64,000 nt of DNA from an uncultured Methanosarcinales archaeon (GTDB lineage Archaea; Nanobdellota; Nanobdellia; Woesearchaeales; CAYVYK01): the NCBI GenBank assembly GCA_964455675.1, contig CAYVYK010000009.1, forward strand, positions 1 to 64,000, in the 5' to 3' direction. Both the position numbers and the translations under genes were made by a program. Under the pieces are notes generated by a model. The model ran no database searches and was not told the origin of the DNA. It worked only from the letters and a program-made list of their open reading frames with translations. Of this stretch, positions 9,546 to 49,838 are shown in pieces. Position 1 is the first letter of the stretch, and every line of letters starts with the position of its first letter.

Positions 9546-11528
9546 CTACAATGAGTATCCACAGCTTCCGCCAGAGGGCTGCAAACCCTGGATGCCCGCG
9601 AGACCCTCATGATACCATCTAAGAAGATTCTTCCGATACCTGCGCGGAAGAACGGACAACTTTTCTGACGCATGCTGATAAAAACCATCAACGGCCTCGC
9701 GGACTCGATCATGAACATCACCTGCGGCATACTCATGATACACACGAGTCAGCTGATCCCTAAAAGCGTCAAACTCACTCATCAAATGGCGAACAATCAT
9801 CAGAGGATTGTAATCCGCATCATTCCTCAACGCTTCATGAGTGATAGCACGGAAATGATCACCGTAAATCGCCTTCGCCACCGCCTCGGGAAATAACTGA
9901 GGATGATCCTTCAGTGTTCTTCCAAGGAATTTCACGTACTCAAACCTGCCCGGCCGCACGACCGTTTGCTTTGCGAGCGAACGCGCCAAAGCCTTAACCT
10001 CATTCATATGAACATCCCTTGCCGGCCGAGGTGAGGGACCAAGATGATCCATGAGGACACTGCACCGCGCATAATAATTCTTGCCGCTCCTATCATACAG
10101 CCTCGCGAGCAGCAGACGGTAGTTCTGCACGATCCGCGATGATTCCTCATCGACGATGGCGCGGTACGCAAGATTCTCAAGATTGGTTGGAATTCCCTGC
10201 TCCAACGCACGATCAACCGCCTTCTGCGGAACAAAGTTCAAAGAAAAGCTGTGCGTGTTATTCCCGAGAGAATCATTGAGGTACCTACCTTCCCTACGCA
10301 TGCGCTCATCCAAACGAGAACCCCTCGCAACAATCAGTAGGCCAGCCATGGCCGTCGGAATACCCGCTTCCTGGCAAAAATCAAAAATCTTATCACAAAT
10401 ATCCGGAGGGTCAGCATCATTTCCCACAATAAATCCGGCAGTAACCTCCATGCCATAACTTTGAATGGACCTCACTGCATCGAGCAAGTTCACCCTCACG
10501 TTCTGGCCCTTATCCATGCTCCTCAGCACGTCCCGGTCAGGGCTCTCGATGCCCACAAACACCATGTCAAAACCAGCGTCGCGCATCAGACCCATGAGCT
10601 CATGATCAACCGAAAGCCCGATGTCCGCCTCAGTATACAATCTAAATGGGTAACCGGCATGCTTCTGGAAGTCAGCCACGTCCCGAAGCACGGGCTTGAC
10701 ACTTTTCCGGTTGCCAATCAGGTTATCATCAACGACAAAAACACCACCGTGATACCCAGTAGCATGAATCGCCTCCAACTCAGCCACGAATTGGCCAGAT
10801 GTTTTCGACCGAAGCGTGTGGCCGTTCAGCGCAGGCTCAGTACAGAATTCACAATCAAACGGGCATCCCCTCCCCATCTGCATCGCCATCGATGCGTACG
10901 CGTTAATCTTGAGCAAGTCAAACCTTGGAATGGGAGAACCGGCCATCGCAGGTCTATCAGCAACCTGCACAATATCACCATCACTGCCCGCAAAGCCCAT
11001 GAGGAGATCCAAAGAGTTCTCATCGATCTTCCGCTCCCCAGACCGTCTTCTCAGCACCGGACGAGCATATACCCTCTTTGCCTCCCCCCTCGCAAAATCA
11101 GTGAGGAACGCATCAAGAACCCCGAGGCCTCCAGCCAGAGGCTCAGCTTCACCGAGCACAAAATGGTCAACACCATCAATCTGATCATAATACTGTGTCG
11201 GAAACGGACCGCCAGCAACAAGAGGGATCTTCCGGTTCGTGGATTTCCCGACGGCCCCTACCTGCCGGACGATGGCATCAAGAGACTTACGCTGGACAAC
11301 CATCGAGGAGGTAAACACCACATCCGACCACGCGATATCATCATCAGACAACTTTTCAATGTTCAGGTCGACCAACCGCACCTCGTCAGCTTTGGGCAGC
11401 AACGCAGCAACCGTGATTAAACCCAAAGGCGGCATGCTCGCCAGTTTCCCGATGTACGGAAGCGCGCCGCTAAAACCCCAATATGTGTCCTTTGGCATTT
11501 CCGGATAAACAAGCAGTATTTTTGACAT
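9546..11528 (-). CDS. B12-binding radical SAM protein (DUF4070-type)
   Basis: KILLVYP, PPLGLITVAALLP, GGPFPT, GEAE, RGCPFDCEFC, VFVGIES, AGFIVG. Confidence 0.92.
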   Translation of the reverse strand: MSKILLVYPEMPKDTYWGFSGALPYIGKLASMPPLGLITVAALLPKADEVRLVDLNIEKLSDDDIAWSDVVFTSSMVVQRKSLDAIVRQVGAVGKSTNRKIPLVAGGPFPTQYYDQIDGVDHFVLGEAEPLAGGLGVLDAFLTDFARGEAKRVYARPVLRRRSGERKIDENSLDLLMGFAGSDGDIVQVADRPAMAGSPIPRFDLLKINAYASMAMQMGRGCPFDCEFCTEPALNGHTLRSKTSGQFVAELEAIHATGYHGGVFVVDDNLIGNRKSVKPVLRDVADFQKHAGYPFRLYTEADIGLSVDHELMGLMRDAGFDMVFVGIESPDRDVLRSMDKGQNVRVNLLDAVRSIQSYGMEVTAGFIVGNDADPPDICDKIFDFCQEAGIPTAMAGLLIVARGSRLDERMRREGRYLNDSLGNNTHSFSLNFVPQKAVDRALEQGIPTNLENLAYRAIVDEESSRIVQNYRLLLARLYDRSGKNYYARCSVLMDHLGPSPRPARDVHMNEVKALARSLAKQTVVRPGRFEYVKFLGRTLKDHPQLFPEAVAKAIYGDHFRAITHEALRNDADYNPLMIVRHLMSEFDAFRDQLTRVYHEYAAGDVHDRVREAVDGFYQHASEKLSVLPRRYRKNLLRWYHEGLAGIQGLQPSGGSCGYSL

Positions 11529-11701
11529 GTTCAAACGTCCCCCATGCAACGGGAAGAAATTATTTATGGTATATAAACGCATGGTTGGAATATTTAACCA
11601 AATTAATCCACCACGGAGGTTTTTCATCCTCCCGATCGTTTCTCCTTTGTGCCAACGCCTCAAGGACGAGGCATGGAGATGATGCTAAATCAACTCAGAC
11701 T

Positions 11702-12181
11702 CTACTCAAACTTCCGCAGAATGTACTCATCGCCCACCTTTTCAAGCGTGCAATCAAAATATTCCTTTTCCTTCCTCCTCACCAGCCTCTCAATGATGAC
11801 AAAATCACTCGGAATAATCTTATCCTTCATCGACACGAGAAGATCAAGATCATACCAGTTGAGCACTCCCTCGGCATCAGTCGTAATATCGGTTGAGAGC
11901 GGATGCAGCTCGCACACATGCAAAATGAAATGCTGAAGAGTAGCACCATTCTCGACCAGCAGCTCAGAGACAACACCTAGATGAGCACGGAACGAAGCAT
12001 GAATACCCGACTCCTCCCGCAGTTCACGAACAGCAGCGGTGCTCACATGCTCATTCTTCTCCACCTTCCCGCCGGGAAGCCCAAGGAGACCTTTGTAATT
12101 ACCCTTTCCCCGCTCGATGAGTAGAAGCTTTTTCTTCCAGATTACAACCGCAACCGCAATAGACATAGGAAAGTGAGCCAT
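11702..12181 (-). CDS. NUDIX hydrolase (MutT-like)
   Basis: Nudix box GGKVEKNEHVSTAAVRELREESGI. Confidence 0.92.
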   Translation of the reverse strand: MAHFPMSIAVAVVIWKKKLLLIERGKGNYKGLLGLPGGKVEKNEHVSTAAVRELREESGIHASFRAHLGVVSELLVENGATLQHFILHVCELHPLSTDITTDAEGVLNWYDLDLLVSMKDKIIPSDFVIIERLVRRKEKEYFDCTLEKVGDEYILRKFE

Positions 12182-37497: not shown

Positions 37498-37800
37498 ATG
37501 GGACACACGGTATGGAGCCAGCGCATCGCAACTGACGTCATCATCGCGGAGCTCAAAGCGTACGGAAAATCGCTGAGGGAGGAAGATCGTGAGATTTACG
37601 AACGGCTGCTCAAGCTGCCACTCAAACGCGTGGGAAGCATCTCGTATGCGAGCAGCATCCACGTGTGGGCATTCCTCTTGCTGTCGGCAATGCTTGAGCA
37701 GGAGAAAAGGATCATGAGAATGGAGGCGGAGATTGAAAGGCTGGCTCATGGACGCATATCGGAAGGGGAACTCGATCACTCTATGGTTGAAGACGCCTGA
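37498..37800 (+). CDS. Small helical PolB2-associated protein (arCOG07300-like)
   Basis: MGHTVWSQR...YGKSLREEDREIYERL...LLSAMLEQEK, directly upstream of PolB2. Confidence 0.75.
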   Translation: MGHTVWSQRIATDVIIAELKAYGKSLREEDREIYERLLKLPLKRVGSISYASSIHVWAFLLLSAMLEQEKRIMRMEAEIERLAHGRISEGELDHSMVEDA

Positions 37801-40321
37801 GGAAGACTTCACGATCACGAAAGAATTCCGCGCGCGCATCTATCTCGACCCCGAGGGAGAAGGGTACCTGCGCAGGCGCGGAATCCCTTACCAAAGGGTA
37901 CAACGCCAGACGTATCTTCGCACGACGCGAGACGTGCTTGAAGTGGAAGCGCCGATCGCGGGATTCGAGCACTTCGTTTCGCAGATCGAGCAAGGAACAA
38001 AGCACCGCGTAGGGCTCTTCAATGCAGACATCAAACCAGAACAGATGTACTTGTATGCTTCAGACCTGCGACCATGCGGCGCAGTTGAGGTTGAGGATGA
38101 GCACATCATTATGCTTCCCGAAGAGCATCCTGTGCAGCTTGTCACGCTTCGACTGAAGGTAATCGTGCACGGGGATCCGCGCAGAAAACAGGACAAACCC
38201 ATCACCAAGATCTTCATGAATGATGCTGTGCTCGAAGGAGAGGAACATCACGTTCTTGAGGAATTCTCGCGCAAATTCCGACAGATTGATCCTGACATTA
38301 TCGTGATGGACTATGGATACTCACGACTGCCATATCTCGCCGATCGGCTTGAGAAGCATGGCATCAGTTGCCCACTGCATCGGTGGGATGATGCGCCGAT
38401 CACGTACCGCGGCGGGAGATCGTACTGGACGTACGGACAAGTACGCTATCAGGATTATGCAGTGCGGCTGCACGGCAGATTTTTGCTGGATACGTCAACA
38501 TTTGTGGGAACAGAATGCGACGTTGATGCGGTTGCAGAACTTGCGTACATGTCAGGAACACTGTTCCAGCAAACAGCATCACGAAGCTTTGGCGCGGCGT
38601 TCCAAACAGCGCTCGTACGGGAAATGATACGCAGAGGATACCTCGTACCCTATAAGGAAAAGCCCCTTGAAAAACCCCTGAGCATGTTTGAGATGCTCAA
38701 GTGCGACCGGGCAGGACACACGATGGACCCGAAAGTAGGGTTTCATCGCGACGTCGCCGAAATCGACTTCACGAGCATGTACCCATGGCTCATCTACAAC
38801 CACAACATCAGCGCGGACAGCATCCTCTCAACGCAGGGGCCGTTCTCTGAAGTTCCGGATGTGCCAATCAGCACGACGCTCCAGTTCAAAGGACTCATCC
38901 CTGCAGTGCTGAAGCCATTCATCGAGCGACGCATGTACTACAAAGCACACCCAACGGCCGTTAACAAGCAACGCGCGCAAGGACTCAAATGGCTGCTCGT
39001 GTCATGCTATGGGTATCTACGCTTCCGGGAATTCAAACTCGGAATACCAACAAGCCATATGGCAATATGCGCGTACGCACGAGAAACAATCCTTCGCGTT
39101 GTAAAACTCGCGGAAGAGCGAGGGTACGAGGTCGTGCACGCCATCATCGACTCCGCATATATCAAGAAGAAGAATATCACAGAAGCGGAAGTAAAAGAAT
39201 TCTGCAAAGAAGTTGAAATGGTCACTGGAATACCGATGTCGTTCGAAGGTGTATTCAAGTGGGCAGTTTTCTTGCCAAGCATTGTTGACAAGGACAGGCC
39301 GCTCCCCACAAGCTACTACGGAGCATTCCGAAGTGGGGAAGTAAAAGCGCGAGGCATCGAGGTGCGGCAGCGCAGCACGCCGCTTGTTGTTAAGCACTTC
39401 CAGCAGCATGTGCTCGAAGAGATGGCAAAGTGCTCGACAAAAGAAGAGATCAAAGCACTGATCCCGGAACTTCTCAAGAAACTCCGAGAAACAATTGAAG
39501 CGATTCCACAGATGGATCACCGGCTGCTTGTCGTGAACATGCGCGTGTCAAAAACGGAATACACACATACGACACCGCAAAAGCGCATTGTGGAACGGCT
39601 CAAGCAAAATGGCATACAGGTTGTTGCTGGGCAGTTTATTCACTTCATTTATGGGCGACGAGGAGCAGTATTGCCTGAAGAATACAACGGCAAGCCGGAC
39701 ATTGCACATTACCGGAAACTCCTTGTCAGATCGCTGTTCACAATATTGCAGCCGTTCGGATACACCAGGCAGGATATCGAGGATGGAGCAGAGATCGAAC
39801 GGCAGACAACACTAGGCGATTTCCTGCTCGTCAAGCATGTGTATGTGCAGATGCGAAAGGAGTATGAGGAACGAAGCGGGCTTTCGGAACGACTGATTCG
39901 ACAGAAACTTGAATCAGAAGGATGGCACGTCTGGAGGAGCGACATGATGAACGTGTTCCGGAACGGAGTGGTGATGTACCCGAATGTACAGCGCAAGTAC
40001 GCACGACTCCTCATGGTTCTCTCGCAGACACACGCAGAGAAGATCGAGGAACTCCAGTACATCAACGCCGTGCATCACGGTCTACCAGATTTCATCTGCC
40101 ACCGCGATGGGGATGTGAAGTTCGTGGAATGCAAACTCCAGTACGAACAATTAAGCAAAGTACAGAAGGCATGCATCGACCGACTGCGAGGAATGGGATT
40201 TCTTGTGGAAGTGCATAAACTCGTGGACCACCGCACACACATCGTGACCGCTGACGTTGATGTTCGCACAAAACGGAAATATGTCTCGGAAGCGCAGCTC
40301 AAGATTGCACAGGCTGTATAA
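37733..40321 (+). CDS. polB2: Family B DNA polymerase of PolB2 type fused to a C-terminal VRR-NUC (PD-(D/E)xK) nuclease
   Basis: Motif A IDFTSMYP, motif B KWLLVSCYGY, motif C HAIIDS, KARGIEVR; C-terminal GLPDFIC...FVECK...LSKVQ...IDRLRGMGFLVEV. Confidence 0.9.
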   Translation: MKGWLMDAYRKGNSITLWLKTPEEDFTITKEFRARIYLDPEGEGYLRRRGIPYQRVQRQTYLRTTRDVLEVEAPIAGFEHFVSQIEQGTKHRVGLFNADIKPEQMYLYASDLRPCGAVEVEDEHIIMLPEEHPVQLVTLRLKVIVHGDPRRKQDKPITKIFMNDAVLEGEEHHVLEEFSRKFRQIDPDIIVMDYGYSRLPYLADRLEKHGISCPLHRWDDAPITYRGGRSYWTYGQVRYQDYAVRLHGRFLLDTSTFVGTECDVDAVAELAYMSGTLFQQTASRSFGAAFQTALVREMIRRGYLVPYKEKPLEKPLSMFEMLKCDRAGHTMDPKVGFHRDVAEIDFTSMYPWLIYNHNISADSILSTQGPFSEVPDVPISTTLQFKGLIPAVLKPFIERRMYYKAHPTAVNKQRAQGLKWLLVSCYGYLRFREFKLGIPTSHMAICAYARETILRVVKLAEERGYEVVHAIIDSAYIKKKNITEAEVKEFCKEVEMVTGIPMSFEGVFKWAVFLPSIVDKDRPLPTSYYGAFRSGEVKARGIEVRQRSTPLVVKHFQQHVLEEMAKCSTKEEIKALIPELLKKLRETIEAIPQMDHRLLVVNMRVSKTEYTHTTPQKRIVERLKQNGIQVVAGQFIHFIYGRRGAVLPEEYNGKPDIAHYRKLLVRSLFTILQPFGYTRQDIEDGAEIERQTTLGDFLLVKHVYVQMRKEYEERSGLSERLIRQKLESEGWHVWRSDMMNVFRNGVVMYPNVQRKYARLLMVLSQTHAEKIEELQYINAVHHGLPDFICHRDGDVKFVECKLQYEQLSKVQKACIDRLRGMGFLVEVHKLVDHRTHIVTADVDVRTKRKYVSEAQLKIAQAV

Positions 40322-41950: not shown

Positions 41951-43348
41951 ATGGGAATTGGGGATATGTACCGAAGCGTAGCGCGAGGCATTCGCAAAGT
42001 ATTGCATGACACACCCGTTGAAGTTCTTGTTGGAGCTCTCGCGGTCGGATCAGCAGGATTTGTTGTCGGGCACAAGCTCGAGAGCAACCGAGAAAAAACC
42101 GTGCCGCTTGCGTTTTCTGAAATAGGGCAGCTTGAAGATGCCGCACGAACGGAAGGAAAAGAACTTGACCTATTCACTCGCTATCATGCAGGGCTCAATG
42201 ACCTTGTTATGAAAGTCATGGAGTCATGGAACAGTGCATGGAAGTACAGCACATCTCCCGAAGGAGCATACAAGAAGTTTGCAGAAGAACTCGAAAAGGG
42301 AATGACCACACGGCAATATCGACACAACATTGCGGACTTTATGGAGAGCGTACCGCTTGATGCTGGAGAAGCACTGCATACACTCTCGCCACTCACGACA
42401 GCTAAGCCAATAGTCTCGGAAGCAGAGCAGCAGTTAGGAAGATCCTGGAATGATTCACACCACGACAATTATCACACGGAACTACGGACACGCACCGTCA
42501 GCCATCGCGACTCAAAAGGAAACGTTTCATACAGCACGGAGTTTTACACGGTGCAAGTCTACGACGATACCACCCACACATACCAGTACAACAAAGACTC
42601 AGGAGAAGCAGCGTCACGGACACTTGACATTCTGCTGAGCGACTTCGCAGATTTCTCGCTTGCGATCAACATGAGAACCGCATCAAGAGTACAGCGCGAG
42701 AACTATGAGGCAATGCAAGCGAGCAGAAAGATGGACGACGGAGAAACACTCGCGGAAGACGAGCTCCTTAAGCTCGCAAACACCTGGAATCAAGGATCAA
42801 ACGTGCAACAGTACGCAGGATTCCTCGCGAGGCCTTTTGGGGAACTTGGGGACGATGCGAATGTATGGCGCGTCCATAAGAACACCGCGCACGGTGACCA
42901 GTACAAAACACGAAGTCACTCGGACAGTGGACCTATGGAATTCCAGACCGCAGCGCGAGCACGCACCCATGCGCAACAGTATCTCGCAAGCGTTGATGCT
43001 GTGACTAAGGGATTATTGTTCACCCAGCAGAACATGCCAGAACTTCATAAGAAGATCACAGGATTCATCGAGTACATGCTCAGGCCGCATCCGAATGCAC
43101 AACTTGATCCTGAACAAGCAGCACTTGAAATCAGAAACCAAACCATTGACCTGTATGGCCAGAACTTCGGCAGAGGTTTTGACATGGAACAGTACCGTGC
43201 AGGAATGGTCGTGCTCTATGGAGTCTTAGGAATACTCGCGGGAGCTGCGCTAGGATTTGGATTTGACCAGGGAGCGAGAAAGCTCGGACTCTGGGATGAA
43301 GTAACACGAGATTACAAGAAAGATTTCTCACGGCCAGAGCAAGATTAA
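41951..43348 (+). CDS. Hypothetical protein with N- and C-terminal TM anchors
   Basis: 465-aa ORF; TATA tttataa upstream. Confidence 0.75.
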   Translation: MGIGDMYRSVARGIRKVLHDTPVEVLVGALAVGSAGFVVGHKLESNREKTVPLAFSEIGQLEDAARTEGKELDLFTRYHAGLNDLVMKVMESWNSAWKYSTSPEGAYKKFAEELEKGMTTRQYRHNIADFMESVPLDAGEALHTLSPLTTAKPIVSEAEQQLGRSWNDSHHDNYHTELRTRTVSHRDSKGNVSYSTEFYTVQVYDDTTHTYQYNKDSGEAASRTLDILLSDFADFSLAINMRTASRVQRENYEAMQASRKMDDGETLAEDELLKLANTWNQGSNVQQYAGFLARPFGELGDDANVWRVHKNTAHGDQYKTRSHSDSGPMEFQTAARARTHAQQYLASVDAVTKGLLFTQQNMPELHKKITGFIEYMLRPHPNAQLDPEQAALEIRNQTIDLYGQNFGRGFDMEQYRAGMVVLYGVLGILAGAALGFGFDQGARKLGLWDEVTRDYKKDFSRPEQD

Positions 43349-43792
43349 GAACGCAATCACAAGCAGCGAATAGTTCACGATCATAAACCACTTCTGACCC
43401 CAGCTGAAACCAGGAAACTTCCAGTCAGAGACGGGCCAAAGAAAGGGAGTTGGCAAGAAGTCTCGCGAATGCGTTGGAATGTCAATCAGTACGTGAATAG
43501 GCCAGGCAAGGAGGAAGTAGGGAAATTCTCCCAAGAGTATTGAAGTGATCGTGAACACGAGGATCATCGAAAAGATACTGTGCGTAATTCCATAGAGAGT
43601 GAACACCCACCTCGGAATACTCTTTATGTCTGGCTTACCCCATTTCTTTCCTTTATGCTGGTAGAATCCCACAACCATATAAATTCCCCAGGAGAGAACG
43701 TCGGGCAGTATTCCTGCAAGGACAGCGTACCATACGAATTCTGAGTTATGAAAGATGATATATGACCAGAGGGCGTGGGCGAAGGTGTCCAT
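43328..43792 (-). CDS. Membrane-bound metal-dependent hydrolase (YdjM-like)
   Basis: HALW, LPD, THS, HVLIDIPTH, PFLWP. Confidence 0.85.
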   Translation of the reverse strand: MDTFAHALWSYIIFHNSEFVWYAVLAGILPDVLSWGIYMVVGFYQHKGKKWGKPDIKSIPRWVFTLYGITHSIFSMILVFTITSILLGEFPYFLLAWPIHVLIDIPTHSRDFLPTPFLWPVSDWKFPGFSWGQKWFMIVNYSLLVIAFLILLWP

Positions 43793-43982: not shown

Positions 43983-44546
43983 TCATTGATCGTCTGGAGA
44001 TGGTGGGGATACAACGTGGCATGATTTCAGATGTTGCATGATGAGTTCTGCAGATTGACGAGAGCCTTGATTGGATGTATCAATATTTAGTTTGCAACCT
44101 TGGAATTCTTGAAAGAGAAGTTCATACGCACGCATCCTACCGTAGAGGAGGCGTGGATTTGCCAAGAGCGAGCGGTGGTAAGGATTGTCCGGGGAGCGAG
44201 CAAGCCTTTGCGCACATTCTGACGCGCTTACCGTGAGGAGAATGAAGACTGTGGGTTTTGGCACTATCCTTGACAGTATCCAGCAGCGACGATACTTGGG
44301 GTACGTCTGGAGAGATTGGATGTAACGATCAAGGATGACTGTTGTCCCCGCGCGCTGTGCATGAGGAATGCGGTAGAGCGCCAGGTGCAACACATGAAGC
44401 CTATACGCCAGAGGCCTTGGGCACCAACTCATAATCTTCGGGACGGAGAGCCCCCGAATGATAACAGAACGAGGAATGAGGCGCGCCAGTTGAGCTGCAA
44501 TGGACGACTTACCCGAGCCATCAACACCCTCAAGAACGAGGATCAT
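43983..44546 (-). CDS. Nucleoside monophosphate kinase, dTMP kinase-like
   Basis: LEGVDGSGKS, VILDRY..S, PKP..FILLTVS...QRL. Confidence 0.85.
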   Translation of the reverse strand: MILVLEGVDGSGKSSIAAQLARLIPRSVIIRGLSVPKIMSWCPRPLAYRLHVLHLALYRIPHAQRAGTTVILDRYIQSLQTYPKYRRCWILSRIVPKPTVFILLTVSASECAQRLARSPDNPYHRSLLANPRLLYGRMRAYELLFQEFQGCKLNIDTSNQGSRQSAELIMQHLKSCHVVSPPSPDDQ

Positions 44547-45459
44547 ACCGAACCTCCGTGAGCGAGAATTTTCGCAAAGGACAAACCGAACGATAGCCAA
44601 GAGGAGCCACTTCATGATACAGGGCGCATGGATTTGCATGCATATCGGCAAGGGAGCGGACTGGCAGGTCACGATCCACGAGCATGATGCATCCGTACAG
44701 ATCGCCTGCAGGCATCACCTGAAGAGGGAGTGCATCATCCAGAAGGCAAGAAGTCTTTGCTCGATGATTCTCCTCGATGAATGGAATACCAACATACACT
44801 GGTATTTCAGGTATCATCCATGACCGGACAATTCCAAGCCAGTCAAGCGGAGGAACCTTTCGCACAGGAATATCTCGCGAGGGCAACGTGAGATAGCAGA
44901 TACGGTGCTCACGCGCTCCGAGCTTCTCGCAAAGGCGGGAAAGATTTGGCAGATCATAGAGATTACCCTCATGCACAACGGAGTTGACCTTCACGAACAT
45001 GCCAGCAGCGGCAGCGTAACGCACAGCAATTATCGCATGCTCAAAAGCCCTAGGGGGGCCTTGATGCAGCAAACCATGGACTTCAGCTGTAGAACCGTCG
45101 ATGCTAATCGCAAGATGGTCAAGACCTGCCGAGAGGAGATTATCAATTGCATGGGGAGTGAGCAAATATCCATTGGAGACGAGCTTCGTGCGATAGCCCA
45201 GATCATGCGCGGCCGACACTATTTCCGATAGGTCGGAACGAAGCGTAGGCTCACCTCCTGAGAACTCCACAACGGAGGCGCCAATGGAACGCGCATCCCC
45301 AAGCAACTCCATGATTGCCGATGCAGGGAGCTCTGCGGAAGAGCGACCACGCAATAGGCAGTGCGAACAGCGGTAATTGCATCGGTCAGTCAGGTTCACG
45401 GACACGGTCTTCACATCGCGCATGGCGATCACTCCCTCGGCTTTCCAATGTACGTGCAC
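44530..45459 (-). CDS. Radical SAM enzyme (start may be 45423)
   Basis: NLTDRCNYRCSHC, FSGGEPTL, LVSNG, ISIDG; C-terminal Cys residues. Confidence 0.9.
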   Translation of the reverse strand: MHVHWKAEGVIAMRDVKTVSVNLTDRCNYRCSHCLLRGRSSAELPASAIMELLGDARSIGASVVEFSGGEPTLRSDLSEIVSAAHDLGYRTKLVSNGYLLTPHAIDNLLSAGLDHLAISIDGSTAEVHGLLHQGPPRAFEHAIIAVRYAAAAGMFVKVNSVVHEGNLYDLPNLSRLCEKLGAREHRICYLTLPSRDIPVRKVPPLDWLGIVRSWMIPEIPVYVGIPFIEENHRAKTSCLLDDALPLQVMPAGDLYGCIMLVDRDLPVRSLADMHANPCALYHEVAPLGYRSVCPLRKFSLTEVRYDPRS

Positions 45460-46565
45460 AAGTAGTTCTCATGCACACGCACGCCATCGTGCGAAGGAAC
45501 AATCTTTGGGAGGATGGGAAGATGGATGCCAGCGCGTTGGGCCATCTTCACACAGTACGGATCCTCGCGATCAAGGGAGCCATTCATGAGCACGGCGCGC
45601 GCAGCGCAGCCGCCCCTACAAGATGGACGGTACTCGCACGCCATATCGTTGCACGACGCGGGAAGAGAAATATTACGTTTGCGTAATGCGCGAAACTCCT
45701 CGGACGCAATGATGTCATTGATGTCCTCTGTAAGAAGATCGCCCGTCTTGTACGCATGCAAATAGATACATGGCGATACCGGCACTTTGCCATCAGGAGT
45801 CTTGGAATGAATGCGCATGGAAGTCGTGCCGCAGGGGCAGCCATGCGTGTCATAACCACAAAGCACCCCCAGCACGGACTCATTCAGGACAGCAAGATCC
45901 GTATGACGCGCAAGGTACTCAAAACAGTCATAAAACTGCTGGACGGAAGGGAGCAGCGCCAGATGGTGATTTTCGGTCGGCCGCAGGGAGTTTATCCTCA
46001 ATTCAGCGTCGTATTCTCTGGCAAGATCAAGCAGCCCGTCAAGATGCCTTGGAGTCGTGTTCCAATTCATCGCACACATGATTATGCTGTGCGGCTTTCT
46101 CTTATCCTTGCAAAGTTTCAACGCGGCAGTCGCACGGTTGAAAATACCCGCGCCCCGATTGCGATCATGCTCCTCACGAAAGGGCGAGTCTAACGAGATG
46201 TCCCAATCATTCACCAGCGCAAAGGCTGCAGGATCACGACGGTGAAGCTCTGTTGCGGTAACCCCATACGTCGTGATACCGAGCACGATCCCTGCACGGT
46301 GCACGCTACGCACGATGTAGGGAAGTGTACTCTTGCCCATGTCAGGGCCATCGGTAAATATCGGCTCATTCCCGCCAAGATTAACGGTATGGACATCTAT
46401 ACTTGACAGTTGGCTGACGATGCGGTCAATCTCAGGAATAGTGAGCGAGCTCGAACCACGCCGAACCTTCCACGAATAACAGTGCTTGCAGCGCGCATCA
46501 CAATAATTGCCCAGTGTCCAGCCCACATTCCTCACGGAAGTTATGCGATCCTCAAGGGATACCAT
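45429..46565 (-). CDS. Radical SAM/SPASM domain protein
   Basis: CDARCKHC, LGGNEP, ISLDS; GCPCG...SPC...CNDMACEYRPSCRGGC...DPYC. Confidence 0.92.
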   Translation of the reverse strand: MVSLEDRITSVRNVGWTLGNYCDARCKHCYSWKVRRGSSSLTIPEIDRIVSQLSSIDVHTVNLGGNEPIFTDGPDMGKSTLPYIVRSVHRAGIVLGITTYGVTATELHRRDPAAFALVNDWDISLDSPFREEHDRNRGAGIFNRATAALKLCKDKRKPHSIIMCAMNWNTTPRHLDGLLDLAREYDAELRINSLRPTENHHLALLPSVQQFYDCFEYLARHTDLAVLNESVLGVLCGYDTHGCPCGTTSMRIHSKTPDGKVPVSPCIYLHAYKTGDLLTEDINDIIASEEFRALRKRNISLPASCNDMACEYRPSCRGGCAARAVLMNGSLDREDPYCVKMAQRAGIHLPILPKIVPSHDGVRVHENYLCTYIGKPRE

Positions 46566-46569
46566 GCTC

Positions 46570-46914
46570 TCATATCCCTTTCAGCGCATCAACAACGCGT
46601 TCCAGCAAGCGATCGAGCTCCTTGCGCTTCTCCTTGTATTCCGGCTCACTGAAGCAGCGGTCGAACGACCAGAGCGCCTCGATGAAAGTGCCATCCACCT
46701 TTTGGAGACCGGAGTGCAGCATCGGATCAGGACGCCTGTCAATGTACATTGAAAAGCTCGCGTCCTGATAGGTACCACGATATTGTGAGGAGCGGTCATC
46801 GTACGTAACAACGACGCCCTCATCGGCAAGAATGCTACCGACAGACCCAAACGATTCCCTGGATGCTTCATACGGCGTGTCGTAGACACCCCAACTAAGT
46901 ACGGTATGCCCCAT
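46570..46914 (-). CDS. Hypothetical protein
   Basis: In operon between the HD and radical SAM genes; SD ggtgag. Confidence 0.65.
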   Translation of the reverse strand: MGHTVLSWGVYDTPYEASRESFGSVGSILADEGVVVTYDDRSSQYRGTYQDASFSMYIDRRPDPMLHSGLQKVDGTFIEALWSFDRCFSEPEYKEKRKELDRLLERVVDALKGI

Positions 46915-47476
46915 TGTTCTCACCTACCAGCCGACGCACGGCTCTGATGTTGGCTTCCAATCCAGGACCACGCAGGGCCCTTGCTGAAGCAGTGTAATAC
47001 TTGTGATTCTCGAGGAAACCAAGCGTTTGCCTGTACCACTGCGCGCGATCCTCCACCTTGAATTCCTCGCGGAGGTTCTCGCACCGAGCGAAAAAGTCAT
47101 CACGGCCGAGATTGTCAAGGTCGGCATCACACATGATCATCTCAAGTTTACTTTTGGGATGGGTCGGGTTTTTCGTCGCAAGCACAAGGCCAGATTCCTC
47201 GTCTATCTCGTACGGAGAGTACCCGAGCGAAGCGAGATACGGACGCGCCATCACAACGCTCTGTTCCTCATTATCTGTTGCTCCTGGAACATACACGAGA
47301 TCGTGCACGTATCCACCACCTGCAAGGAGATGGCATTCATAGGAGGAGCAACCTTCTCTTTGCGCTAGATCCAAAGCGGCGCGCACCATGTCATCCATAT
47401 GCCAAGGATTATGATAGGGAAGATTTGGCATTCTTTCCAACGCAAATTCTCGAATGCTTTGGAGGCGGCGGTCCAT
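46895..47476 (-). CDS. HD-domain phosphohydrolase, phosphodiesterase-like
   Basis: LPYHNPWH...HDLVY...NEEQS...LATK...CDADL..LG. Confidence 0.88.
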   Translation of the reverse strand: MDRRLQSIREFALERMPNLPYHNPWHMDDMVRAALDLAQREGCSSYECHLLAGGGYVHDLVYVPGATDNEEQSVVMARPYLASLGYSPYEIDEESGLVLATKNPTHPKSKLEMIMCDADLDNLGRDDFFARCENLREEFKVEDRAQWYRQTLGFLENHKYYTASARALRGPGLEANIRAVRRLVGENNGAYRT

Positions 47477-47581
47477 GAGTCATCACATTAGAATATGTGT
47501 GGTTATGAATATTAGAAAGATCTGATCGTTTTTCCCGTTTTTTCCGTAATATTTATATGTATATTGCGGAATATTAGGCTC

Positions 47582-48619
47582 ATGTGGTTCTTACCCGACC
47601 TTGGGCCACTCGAGCGGCACCCACAGCCAGTAAAGATCGACGAGAAAGACCGCCAAATCCTCAACATTATTGGCCAAAACGCCCGAATGCCACTCTCTGC
47701 TATCGCAAAGCGTGTCAAAGTATCACGCGACAAGGTGGATTACCGCCTCAGAGGGTTACGCAGCAAGAAAGTGATCTTTCATGCACAGACATTCATCGAT
47801 GTCGCCAAATTCGGGTATCAGTCATACCACATCTTTTTCCGACTCAAAAATCCCCTCCCTGAAACGGGGATCATAGCACACATCTCCGCACTCCCCTACG
47901 TTCGGGCAGTGCTCAAATACAACGGGCGATATGATCTTGACGTATCCGTCATCGCACATGACGTATATGAATTCGACAGGCAGCTCACTGATATCGCAGG
48001 CATTCTTGGAACACACCTCCAAAGCTACGATATCCTCGTCAATTCAGCAGCATACCGCACCGCAGCATTCCCAAATAGCTTCCTCAAGCAGCCACTACCG
48101 ATTGAACCCGCATTTGAACCCTACACTTGCGACGAAAAAGACATGCGCATCCTCAAGACTATCAGAACGAACGCCGAAAAACCACTCCTCAAGATCGGAC
48201 AGGAAACAGAAATGTCAGCTGACACAGTCAGCTATCGCCTCAAGAAAATGCATGCAGCAGGAATCATACGCGCGTACCAGCCAGTCATCAGCTACGGAGC
48301 CATGGGATACACCGTATACACGATGCTCCTCCATGTCAGGCCTCTCGATGCCAAGCGCGAGGCAACACTGCGCACATTCCTCACGACGTACCCCCATATC
48401 CTTTGGGCCGTGAAAACCGTTGGCAAGTACAATCTTCTCCTGTATGTTTGCGTACCTGCGATGAAGGCAGAGAGAGAACTCTATGAGACAATATCAAGAC
48501 TCCGCAGCCTCTTTGCCGAGCAAATAACAGAATACGAACTCCTCCTGCCAATCATTGAGTACAAATACACGTGCGCTCCGGACATCCTATTTTCTCGTCC
48601 CAAGGAAGTGACGAGATAA
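47582..48619 (+). CDS. Tandem (double) Lrp/AsnC family regulator
   Basis: IDEKDRQIL...NARMPLSAIAKRV...VDYRL and DEKDMRIL...NAEKP...TVSYRLKKM. Confidence 0.9.
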   Translation: MWFLPDLGPLERHPQPVKIDEKDRQILNIIGQNARMPLSAIAKRVKVSRDKVDYRLRGLRSKKVIFHAQTFIDVAKFGYQSYHIFFRLKNPLPETGIIAHISALPYVRAVLKYNGRYDLDVSVIAHDVYEFDRQLTDIAGILGTHLQSYDILVNSAAYRTAAFPNSFLKQPLPIEPAFEPYTCDEKDMRILKTIRTNAEKPLLKIGQETEMSADTVSYRLKKMHAAGIIRAYQPVISYGAMGYTVYTMLLHVRPLDAKREATLRTFLTTYPHILWAVKTVGKYNLLLYVCVPAMKAERELYETISRLRSLFAEQITEYELLLPIIEYKYTCAPDILFSRPKEVTR

Positions 48620-48659
48620 TCGCAACGGATTTTTATAGCATGTTGAATTCTCATACAAT

Positions 48660-49838
48660 ATGAATCCAAACGGACGCCTGACCGTGTACGCATGCACGAA
48701 CGGAGTCCACTACGCTTCTCGGCTCGTGAAATGCCTCAACACAATCATTGATGAGGAAAACAAAGGACGTGAAGGATTCACGATGCACGAACCACACGTG
48801 CAGTTCAAAGTACCTGAGGTAAAAGAGTTCCCCGCGACGTTCATCACGACACGCATCAAGGAAGGAGTACGAGGGGAAGACGCATTTCTCGTCCAATGGT
48901 TCCCAGCACCGCCACAAGACAATCACCAGTACTCACTTCCAAAAACGCAGGTGGAGATGGACGCGATCGTCGCAGAAATCACCAACCGCGAGCGAACACG
49001 CCTCACCGCGCCACGAAACAAGGAGGAATTCCTCCAAAGCATCGCGGCCCTCAAAAACGCAGGAGTAAAAAGACTATCACTTGTCACACCATACGCATAC
49101 GCGCAACGCAAAGACACAATCGAGGGAAGAGATTCGATTGACGCGGCACTCTTCTGCCAGCAACTCGAAGGAGTGACGCACCGCCAGCACATGGACGCTT
49201 TCTGCCTTGATGTTCACGCGAACCAGATACCAGGCTACTATCAGCAAGTCAACATCAGCCTTGTCAGCATCGGAGTGTACGCGATGTGCGTGGATTATCT
49301 CAAGAAAAACCATCCTGAACTTCTCGAAAATGCAGTCATCCTCCTGCCAGACACAGGAATGGCAAAGCGAGCAGGAGCACGCCTGTCCGCACTCACAGGC
49401 CTAGACCGCATCACCATGGACAAGGTTCGCATTGGACCGACGGAAACGCGCCTTGAGGCATTCTACAAAGGATCAGGCGCGGACATCGCCGGGAAGGACG
49501 CTCTACTCTTTGATGATATCCTTGGAAGCGGAGGAACAGCAGGACAGGCAACCAACTTCGTGCGCAAGGAGCTCAAGCTCAAAGATGTAAGCTGGGTCAT
49601 GACACACCCCGAAGCAACTCGGCTCGCGGAACTTGATGATATGCATGCACAGGGGTATTGCAGATATGTCTTTCACGCAGACACGATGCCGGTACCGAGG
49701 GATTACTGCGTACCATTCCCAACAGCGCCGCTTGTCGCGCGACTGATGTACAACATCCATACTGACAGAAGCATCGGGCCATACCTCGAAGCCACGACCT
49801 TCCTAGACGGCAAACTCCCACTACCCAAGATCGATTGA
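48660..49838 (+). CDS. Divergent ribose-phosphate pyrophosphokinase (PRPP synthetase family)
   Basis: VRGEDAFLVQ, VTPYAYAQRKD, LDVHA.QI.GYY, PDTG..KRA, FDDILGSGGT, TH. Confidence 0.8.
   Translation: MNPNGRLTVYACTNGVHYASRLVKCLNTIIDEENKGREGFTMHEPHVQFKVPEVKEFPATFITTRIKEGVRGEDAFLVQWFPAPPQDNHQYSLPKTQVEMDAIVAEITNRERTRLTAPRNKEEFLQSIAALKNAGVKRLSLVTPYAYAQRKDTIEGRDSIDAALFCQQLEGVTHRQHMDAFCLDVHANQIPGYYQQVNISLVSIGVYAMCVDYLKKNHPELLENAVILLPDTGMAKRAGARLSALTGLDRITMDKVRIGPTETRLEAFYKGSGADIAGKDALLFDDILGSGGTAGQATNFVRKELKLKDVSWVMTHPEATRLAELDDMHAQGYCRYVFHADTMPVPRDYCVPFPTAPLVARLMYNIHTDRSIGPYLEATTFLDGKLPLPKID

Follow-up and report, generated by a model that had tools for sequence, protein, structure and literature searches.

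Gene Organization at the Locus

The stretch of DNA analyzed here (the window) comprises the first 64,000 nucleotides of contig CAYVYK010000009.1 (GenBank assembly GCA_964455675.1), forward strand, from an uncultured archaeon assigned by GTDB to the Woesearchaeales. Between positions 43,983 and 49,838 it carries a minus-strand operon that unites two radical S-adenosylmethionine (SAM) enzymes, termed R1 and rSAM2, with an HD-type phosphohydrolase and a nucleoside monophosphate (NMP) kinase of the thymidylate kinase (Tmk) family, opposite a divergent gene for a tandem Lrp/AsnC-type regulator. The gene set recurs as a unit, and its composition suggests a pathway that tailors a nucleotide. An earlier reading of the letters (the original prediction) had listed seven open reading frames (ORFs) in this region, all of which reappear in the ORF list at the same positions:

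43983–44546 (minus strand; full ORF 43983–44672): Tmk-like NMP kinase, last gene of the operon, PF02223; the shorter coordinates give the probable gene
44530–45459 (minus strand): rSAM2, second radical SAM enzyme, 309 aa, PF04055
45429–46565 (minus strand): R1, radical SAM/SPASM enzyme, 378 aa, anchor of the cassette family, PF04055 and PF13186
46570–46923 (minus strand): ORFan, 117 aa, between the HD and R1 genes, without a family
46895–47476 (minus strand): HD phosphohydrolase, 193 aa, first gene of the operon, HD motif and YpgQ-like model
47477–47581 (no strand): AT-rich divergent intergenic region between the HD and Lrp genes, presumed shared control region, by sequence inspection
47564–48619 (plus strand): tandem (double) Lrp/AsnC-type regulator, divergent to the operon, two HTH_AsnC plus AsnC_trans_reg domains
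48660–49838 (plus strand): atypical gene resembling phosphoribosyl pyrophosphate (PRPP) synthetase (PRS-like), Pribosyltran_N and TIGR01251

The tight packing of the five minus-strand genes, also pointed out originally, holds throughout, as every junction in the ORF list is an overlap or a near-abutment: the HD gene shares 29 nt with the ORFan, 4 nt lie between the ORFan and R1, R1 and rSAM2 overlap by 31 nt if a GTG start is assumed, and rSAM2 and the kinase gene overlap by 17 nt if the latter starts at M43 (position 44546), which is probable because matches to the kinase family begin only at residues 42–45. The HD, R1, rSAM2, and Tmk genes are probably co-transcribed. The presumed control region reads as an A/T-rich stretch including TATA-like runs, and an ATG at 47582 offers an alternative start for the Lrp gene. 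The window belongs to a genome of 1.72 Mb in 25 contigs (G000, 99% complete), and the nearest named homologs of R1 and of the HD protein come from Nanoarchaeia/Nanoarchaeota.

Conservation and Distribution of the Cassette

A metagenome scan with R1 returned four loci at 60–63% identity (L132, L135, L137, and L151; the close loci). In all four, the Lrp gene is divergent from the HD gene in the same arrangement as in the window; rSAM2 follows R1 in all three loci long enough to include that position, and both of the two that extend further have a Tmk-like gene. The kinase gene follows rSAM2 in L132, L151, and also L017, and the tandem Lrp is co-conserved in the four close loci (E-values of 9e-77 to 7e-96) and in L017. 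A more distant version in genome G004 has kept the Lrp gene divergent from an R1-like gene, rSAM2, and Tmk. The conserved unit thus consists of the Lrp gene facing HD-R1-rSAM2-Tmk, with the ORFan and the PRS-like gene outside. Conservation of the gene neighborhood had been named as a check on the proposed pathway; it was borne out for the core enzymes and Lrp, and not for the ORFan (in 0/4 close loci) or the PRS-like gene (adjoining in 0/3 with enough flank: L132, L135, and L151), so that neither of these two is supported as a member of the pathway.

R1 genome loci (n = 80) extend to Acidobacteriota, gut Clostridia, gut and Rickettsiales-like Alphaproteobacteria, Nocardia, Streptomyces, Bradyrhizobium, and Paenibacillus. 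Within the phylum of the host, R1 was found in 3 of 401 genomes (E ≤ 1e-40), the other two copies having only 35% identity. R1 also occurs on plasmids, namely five conjugative ones of Phaeobacter inhibens, one of an Enterococcus sp., and one linear plasmid of S. clavuligerus (for example L201, NZ_CP081267.1, P. inhibens; L202, NZ_CP040462.1, Enterococcus sp.; L203, NZ_CP065243.1, S. clavuligerus). The Phaeobacter and Enterococcus plasmids are predicted to be conjugative, and on them R1 lies beside a MATE or MFS exporter gene and a small ‘inorganic diphosphatase’ gene; an exporter gene next to R1 was likewise seen on L200. These exporters favor a secreted metabolite in those hosts. A phage origin of R1 was considered and rejected: no match was obtained at E ≤ 1e-10 among 50,697 phage records, and the single match among IMG/VR contigs lies on a contig in which Pfam revealed no viral hallmark. 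In a quick tree of R1, whose placements are provisional, the window sequence groups with L132, L137, and L151, and a Woesearchaeota copy is placed inside the group from the Candidate Phyla Radiation (CPR).

The Two Radical SAM Enzymes

Family membership was judged by the cut-offs of curated Pfam and NCBIfam hidden Markov models (HMMs), in place of a tree with reference clades. R1 matches Radical_SAM (PF04055) with 44.2 bits and SPASM (PF13186) with 27.6 bits (cut-off 21.5), and its conserved cysteines are C243/C245/C266/C310/C316/C320/C338/C370. A radical SAM core combined with a C-terminal cysteine-rich auxiliary-cluster domain, the mark of the SPASM/twitch subfamily, is therefore present. 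The top NCBIfam family was MftC with 100 bits at a cut-off of 265; NirJ2 (61 vs. 500) and PqqE (38 vs. 381) scored lower, and viperin (NF038283, cut-off 180 bits) was not among the best 25 families listed. In PADLOC, R1 gave weak pVip matches and matched no other model. The AF2 model of R1, with a predicted local distance difference test score (pLDDT) of 88.6, retrieved PqqE, anSME, and SuiB as top Foldseek matches at a template modeling (TM) score of only about 0.6, with DesII among the weak matches. Most of the 613 R1 homologs (45–62% identity) are unnamed and lie at 45–50%; the named ones derive from Nanoarchaeia, Aenigmatarchaeota, Paceibacterota, Azambacteria, Anaerolineae, and Xanthobacteraceae. 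The ESM Atlas labels the clusters of this family ‘radical SAM protein’ only. The R1 family is thus one without a curated model match, for which automatic names stop at ‘radical SAM protein’.

For rSAM2, PF04055 was matched with 84.2 bits and a SPASM match was absent in Pfam, whereas a relative in L017 reached 42 bits on the Pfam SPASM model. NCBIfam matches were confined to the core and stayed well below the cut-offs (PqqE 106 vs. 381, AhbD 107 vs. 500, MoaA 97 vs. 325, BlsE 83 vs. 400). The top sequence match in the PDB was BlsE, over residues 20–192, and AbmM (8wm2) gave a weak match to the core (E-value of 2.6e-6). The CxxxCxxC motif (C27/C31/C34) is invariant in 12 relatives, in which C257, C278, and C293 of the C-terminal part are invariant as well and C238 is nearly so. 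These four conserved C-terminal cysteines indicate an auxiliary cluster in rSAM2, to be housed in a reduced auxiliary domain.

In viperin, a single CxxxCxxC cluster is combined with a nucleotide-binding extension at the C-terminus, and an auxiliary Fe-S cluster is not known. Given its conserved C-terminal cysteines, rSAM2 does not conform to this one-cluster type; it scores 74.2 bits on NF038283 at a cut-off of 180, and its PADLOC pVip matches (78–80 bits) cover model positions 2–152 of 257 only. The caution voiced at the outset that the radical SAM enzymes are not shown to be viperins was therefore justified. By the HMM cut-offs, neither enzyme belongs to the curated viperin, MoaA, PqqE, NirJ/Ahb, or MftC families; placement in a known cofactor clade had been named as a finding that would speak against the original prediction.

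The Kinase and the Phosphohydrolase

The kinase matches Thymidylate_kin (PF02223) with 43.7 bits (cut-off 27) and reaches 37.4 bits on the dTMP-kinase equivalog TIGR00041 (cut-off 83.25). Its translation contains a P-loop (GVDGSGKS) and a DRY motif, which we take to be the motifs expected of the thymidylate kinase family. In PADLOC it obtained 34.8 bits on PDC-M51B, from two short stretches of which the better one covers the P-loop, and 24.4 bits on VakA. A second, better-scoring Tmk is encoded elsewhere in the genome of the window. The cassette kinases of other loci score 51.8–92.3 bits on TIGR00041, the uppermost value belonging to a kinase of the Woesearchaeota/CPR type (L072) that passes the equivalog cut-off (92.3 vs. 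83.25); in PADLOC they match VakA and PDC-M51B, the latter with up to 59 bits.

The HD protein of the window itself gave no Pfam match at E ≤ 0.01. Its relatives score 21.7–26.6 bits on PF01966, and H22, H26, H58-D59, D117, and D119 are invariant in an alignment of 23 sequences. The AF2 model (pLDDT 95.9) found B. subtilis YpgQ (5dqw) as its top Foldseek match at a TM score of 0.69–0.72. Homologs (n = 27), where named at all, are called HD phosphohydrolases of Nanoarchaeota, and PHROG returned ‘phosphohydrolase’ matches. The motif, the scores of the relatives, and the AF2 model together sustain the initial call of an HD hydrolase, and the combination of the motif with an all-helical HD fold in the model suggests a YpgQ-like HD-domain phosphohydrolase. 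YpgQ is described in PMC8177086 as a Mn-dependent (d)NTP pyrophosphohydrolase with H..HD..D ligands, and PenF, which is YpgQ-like, is presented in PMC11592144 as a nucleotidase within a nucleoside-antibiotic cluster that dephosphorylates Ara-AMP.

Taken together, the catalytic motifs of all four enzymes (HD, R1, rSAM2, and Tmk-like) are intact.

Regulator, ORFan, and PRS-like Gene

According to Pfam, the Lrp protein contains two AsnC-type helix-turn-helix (HTH) domains plus RAM domains. Its family is matched 13 times in the genome of the window and as many as 24 times in a relative, with matches in 37 of 41 genomes. Such two-unit Lrp/AsnC proteins are greatly expanded across the host's order. 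On siroheme decarboxylase models the protein scores 46 bits (AhbA, cut-off 140) and 27.9 bits (AhbB, cut-off 125), and its NCBIfam scores for LysM/AsnC regulators exceed that for AhbA. With its conserved position, the tandem Lrp appears to behave as a pathway regulator and to belong with the cassette.

The ORFan matched no family in Pfam, NCBIfam, PADLOC, or PHROG, and a search of 1.84 billion representative proteins returned only the protein itself. Its G+C content by codon position (0.58/0.42/0.61) resembles that of the neighboring genes and is thus coding-like. In all four close loci, where the ORFan is missing, the HD gene abuts R1 and no conserved small ORF takes its place; the small ORFs that follow an HD gene in G004 and G008 bear no likeness to it.

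These two genes bear on a reading in which the locus would mature a peptide that is made by the ribosome and modified after translation (RiPP), with the ORFan as precursor of two SPASM-type maturases, or would serve a tetrapyrrole pathway of the Ahb/NirJ type, with the double Lrp as an AhbAB-like decarboxylase. It would account for the maturases among the best curated and structural matches of R1 (MftC with 100 bits, anSME, PqqE, SuiB), for the weak matches of Lrp to AhbA/AhbB and to the NirDL HTH, and for the AhbD score of rSAM2 (107 bits). We nevertheless regard it as exceedingly improbable, since every curated cut-off lies 2.6 to 5 times above the score reached, no conserved protease or precursor family was found across 164 loci, and the ORFan is missing from the 4/4 close loci without a conserved small ORF in its stead. 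For the tetrapyrrole variant, no ALAD/HemB was found in the 99%-complete genome, which thus would lack the tetrapyrrole precursor, and the double Lrp is one of a family of regulators matched 13 times in that genome and scores higher as LysM/AsnC than as AhbA. We accordingly rejected both the ORFan as a RiPP precursor (missing in close loci, without relatives, and unlike the small ORFs by which HD is followed in G004 and G008) and an Ahb-type heme pathway with the double Lrp as decarboxylase (scores far under the cut-offs, no ALAD, and a massively expanded regulator family).

PRPP synthetases usually carry FxDGE in the flag region. The original prediction had described an atypical PRPP synthetase with FPATF in this place and an insertion, and these details hold in an alignment to a solved PRS: FPATF aligns with FANGE, some 32 residues are inserted between positions 85 and 125, and the catalytic loop and the ribose-phosphate loop have DKVR and DDILGSGGT as their counterparts. 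The protein scores 36 bits on Pribosyltran_N and 104.4 bits on TIGR01251, just below the cut-off of 113, and no other protein of the 99%-complete genome matches TIGR01251. Its family is very small, with 13 other proteins at 41–50% identity among 5.8 billion; identity to the PRS of related genomes is about 30%, and the one closer relative within the phylum, in G135 at 35% identity, is not surrounded by cassette genes. Beyond the Lrp gene, L132 instead carries a glutamate-synthase-domain gene and L151 an AdoMet-decarboxylase-like gene. The PRS-like gene, as the only PRS-type gene of its genome, is thus probably a housekeeping gene and an odd neighbor rather than a member of the cassette. Membership, which the close loci do not support, leaves one loose end: on two related peat-type contigs, a canonical class-I PRPP synthetase gene lies convergent with and directly beside R1 (L162:1297–2307 and L165:2323–3324), a second, independent adjacency of PRS and R1.

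Gene Neighborhoods Across the R1 Family

Neighboring ORFs were called naively, grouped by BLAST, and the groups named by Pfam, so that high-GC loci are probably undercounted; the phosphohydrolase class in the counts comprises small pyrophosphatase (PPase)-like, Nudix, HD, and His-phosphatase genes. Of 71 R1 loci flanked by 5 kb or more on each side, 53 had a second radical SAM gene, 36 a Tmk-like gene, 50 a phosphohydrolase gene, and 35 all three. After dereplication at 80% identity (flanks of at least 4 kb, n = 25), the corresponding numbers were 20, 10, 11, and 9. A second radical SAM gene, of either the OxsB-like B12 type or the SPASM type, is hence the most constant partner of R1. The following arrangements were seen:

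CPR and Woesearchaeota: [Hsp70/YegD-like], B12-type radical SAM (B12-rSAM), R1, small PPase-like, Tmk
Gut Alphaproteobacteria: Nudix, B12-rSAM, R1, adenosine-deaminase-like, Tmk, Hsp70-like
Gut Clostridia: His-phosphatase, R1, B12-rSAM, methyltransferase, unknown gene, Tmk, P-loop kinase, guanylate-kinase-like, PPase-like
Other Clostridia: an unnamed gene (c14), R1, amidohydrolase, P-loop protein, PPase-like, HAD
Actinomycetes: B12-rSAM, R1, with PPase-like, APH-type phosphotransferase, or MTAP-like genes
Acidobacteriota: R1 with several further SPASM-type radical SAM genes
G204 (DPANN, R1-like at 35% identity): CTP synthase, R1-like, amidohydrolase, B12-like radical SAM, Nudix, Tmk
G196 (DPANN, R1-like at 35% identity): Hsp70-like, R1-like, 941-aa amidohydrolase–radical SAM fusion

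The c14 gene has no Pfam family and looks PHP-like by eye only. The B12-rSAM found in most bacterial R1 loci has OxsB as its best solved relative (E-value of 1.2e-9), and such partners score 50–57 bits on PDC-M51A of PADLOC. A B12-binding radical SAM protein also occurs in the window (9546–12181, minus strand; 705 aa, with DUF4070), followed by a NUDIX hydrolase gene. This pair was rejected as the absent cassette partner, as identity is 22% and confined to the radical SAM core, and it appears to be a unit separate from the cassette. The amidohydrolase, adenosine-deaminase-like, and MTAP-like genes that alternate in the cassettes are closest to 5'-deoxyadenosine/5'-methylthioadenosine (MTA) deaminases and MTA phosphorylase; 5'-deoxyadenosine being an inhibitory by-product of radical SAM enzymes, their presence would fit its disposal.

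In another reading, the substrate would be a small molecule other than a nucleotide, such as a sugar, an aminocyclitol, or an amino-acid derivative, with the kinases and phosphatases providing cryptic phosphorylation or self-resistance. A recognizable Tmk-like gene is absent from 15 of the 25 dereplicated loci, the Actinomycete and Phaeobacter copies are accompanied by APH-type phosphotransferase, GNAT, AMP-binding, and glycosyltransferase genes, and DesII, which like BtrN is a SPASM/twitch enzyme acting on sugars, is among the weak fold matches of R1. However, the Tmk-family, Nudix, YpgQ-like HD, MTAP-like, and adenosine-deaminase-like proteins are enzymes of nucleotides and nucleosides, one cassette kinase lies above the dTMP-kinase cut-off, and OxsB, the closest solved relative of the partner, acts on nucleotides; we therefore hold a non-nucleotide substrate to be distinctly unlikely.

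The same nucleotide enzymes could in principle belong to housekeeping metabolism, as an alternative route to dTMP or deoxynucleotides, or for pool sanitation, in reduced genomes. The cassette is indeed frequent in such genomes (CPR, DPANN, Rickettsiales-like, small gut Clostridia), and the sole PRS-type gene of the host lies next door. In the 1.0-Mb CPR genome of L087 (G416), moreover, the cassette Tmk (C1:51386–51940) is the only PF02223 match and may thus double as the housekeeping dTMP kinase there. Yet the genome of the window has ThyX, a second Tmk, and class I/II ribonucleotide reductase, ThyA was found in 5/5 and a second Tmk in 4/5 of the cassette-bearing CPR/Woesearchaeota genomes tested, and an occurrence in 3 of 401 genomes of the phylum is at odds with an essential function. 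These standard enzymes largely refute the housekeeping reading, which we consider very unlikely, and alternative thymidylate or deoxynucleotide synthesis was rejected on the same grounds. The ThyX gene of the host (contig C7:79615–80901) is in itself unusual in forming one open frame of 543 aa with two Thy1 domains, an apparent tandem fusion.

A further alternative shares its chemistry with the tailoring pathway that we favor and assigns it a different role, namely intracellular immunity of the viperin type rather than a secreted metabolite: in infection, the radical SAM enzymes would make a chain-terminating NTP analog, fed with substrate by the Tmk-like kinase, while the HD protein would protect or reset the nucleotide pool. 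In its favor, rSAM2 matches pVip in the core (78–80 bits), cassette kinases match VakA and PDC-M51B (to 59 bits) and the B12-rSAMs PDC-M51A (50–57 bits), the distribution is patchy (3/401 genomes of the phylum), the gut Clostridia form often lies beside integrase and UvrD-type (UvrD/GajB-like) helicase genes, and the operon of the window has no exporter. On the other hand, NF038283 was missed (74 vs. 180 bits), auxiliary-cluster cysteines, which viperin is not known to have, are conserved in rSAM2, and PDC-M51 is merely a candidate system, on which the literature search found no text. Furthermore, the plasmid copies are accompanied by MATE/MFS exporter, GNAT, and AMP-binding enzyme genes, as in biosynthetic clusters, and a Pfam scan of the window revealed no known defense genes beside the operon. 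On balance, we judge a viperin-type role to be unlikely, if not to the same degree as the readings above.

Other Observations in the Window

The remainder of the window is ordinary chromosome, with H+-PPase, UvrABC, PolB, transporter, and glycosyltransferase genes in the Pfam scan. The family-B DNA polymerase (37733–40321, plus strand) has a C-terminal VRR-NUC nuclease domain (PF08774, 33 bits). Directly downstream of the operon lies a gene for a YdjM-like membrane protein (43328–43792, minus strand), a close homolog of which (E-value of 4.5e-56) is encoded at L196:5813–6277, 2.6 kb from the R1-like cassette of G196; the proximity in both genomes may reflect shared synteny or a functional link.

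A Candidate Nucleotide-Tailoring Pathway and Its Likeness to Known Systems

The explanation we favor, with a confidence somewhat better than even, is that the operon of the window is the DPANN-archaeal form of a widely transferred, uncharacterized cassette for a nucleotide-tailoring pathway that would follow the logic of ThmABC, OxsAB, and the viperin–kinase pairs. The modified-nucleotide pathway proposed originally is thereby upheld in its core, as the core genes are co-conserved, the radical SAM enzymes lie outside the known curated families, and the context is one of nucleotide enzymes, and is given up with respect to the ORFan and the PRS-like gene. In such a pathway, the substrate, taken at the mono- or triphosphate level, would be a common nucleotide, with a pyrimidine (deoxy)nucleotide as the likeliest candidate, and R1 and rSAM2 would remodel its sugar or base in two successive 5'-deoxyadenosyl-radical steps. 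The Tmk-family kinase would set the phosphorylation state of substrate or product (NMP to NDP), while the YpgQ-like HD hydrolase would remove pyrophosphate or phosphate, either releasing a nucleoside or keeping a toxic triphosphate out of the producer's pools. The Lrp protein would act as on/off switch of the operon. Gene order and its conservation, the family assignments with their catalytic motifs, the recurring nucleotide enzymes around R1, and the exclusion from known radical SAM families are observed, whereas we infer which class of substrate is used, in which order the steps occur, what the product is, and whether it serves as an antibiotic or antimetabolite, as an antiviral, or in another role.

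Several points weigh against this explanation. Every chemical step is deduced from neighboring genes. The nearest solved folds of R1 are SPASM enzymes that modify peptides or proteins, at a TM score of only about 0.6, and the kinase of the window has diverged strongly, reaching 37 bits on the equivalog for dTMP kinase. A Tmk-like gene was not found in 15, and a phosphohydrolase gene not in 14, of the 25 dereplicated loci, so that a nucleotide context of R1 is frequent and not universal. An exporter gene is lacking in the operon of the window. Finally, G004:C33 and G008:C29 each show a divergent Lrp–HD pair that is not accompanied by R1, hence HD could be a separately regulated unit to which the rSAM-rSAM-Tmk module was added. 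At the former site (L198:3190–6635), the pair is followed by an unidentified ORF and a different radical SAM gene of 391 aa, and at the latter (L199:7345–9449) by a 109-aa ORF and an ABCE1-like gene.

A broader proposal, which we put forward tentatively and as a possibility rather than an expectation, is that the R1 cassettes constitute a large and as yet undescribed class of two-radical-SAM systems that make nucleoside or nucleotide analogs and have spread by transfer through Archaea and Bacteria alike, with plasmids of Streptomyces and Phaeobacter at one end of the range and the ultra-small symbionts of CPR and DPANN at the other, and with the archaeal Lrp-HD-R1-rSAM2-Tmk form making a variant of its own that episymbionts could use against hosts, rivals, or viruses. 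If this were true, there would be a new enzyme pair, probably a new class of nucleotide analogs, and tiny symbiotic archaea and bacteria would carry radical SAM nucleotide chemistry. The R1 copies on plasmids of cultured Phaeobacter and Streptomyces offer tractable hosts in which this can be tested at the bench.

Among the nucleoside analogs that radical SAM enzymes make are antivirals and antibiotics, namely 3'-deoxy-3',4'-didehydro-CTP (ddhCTP, viperin), oxetanocin, and 4'-thiothymidine. Viperin and pVip, together with their NMP kinases (RSAD2-CMPK2, pVip-VakA), provide one precedent for a radical SAM enzyme beside a kinase of the thymidylate kinase family, as in the window, which in turn adds a SPASM-type enzyme and an HD hydrolase and in which rSAM2 matches the core only. 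In PADLOC, the candidate system PDC-M51 pairs a B12-type radical SAM enzyme with a Tmk-like kinase, and bacterial R1 cassettes match both components, whereas the window has no A component and its kinase reaches only 34.8 bits on B. The literature search returned no published description of the R1 cassette. A further precedent is the oxetanocin-A pathway, in which OxsA is the HD phosphohydrolase according to PMC8177086. OxsA and the B12-dependent radical SAM enzyme OxsB act on a nucleotide, and the window likewise has HD and radical SAM enzymes; its operon, however, is devoid of a B12-type enzyme, the partner being the SPASM/twitch-type rSAM2, its HD model is nearest to YpgQ and not to OxsA, and it adds the SPASM enzyme R1 and a kinase.

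A likeness in gene content also exists to thmABC of Photorhabdus asymbiotica, where a radical SAM enzyme, a nucleoside kinase, and an NTPase make 4'-thiothymidine and the NTPase alone confers self-resistance; the cluster moves between genomes as a unit and is reported from Gammaproteobacteria only (PMC12691670). The window similarly pairs radical SAM, nucleotide kinase, and nucleotide phosphatase genes, a likeness by gene content only, but has two radical SAM enzymes where ThmABC has one, an HD protein as its phosphatase, and an archaeal setting with an Lrp regulator. The AbmG/AbmM steps of albomycin are related to ThmABC; the match between rSAM2 and AbmM is weak. Nucleotide-tailoring clusters in which radical SAM enzymes join a kinase and a phosphatase are thus a known kind of system, whereas the R1 enzyme pair and the archaeal Lrp-HD form are not previously known.

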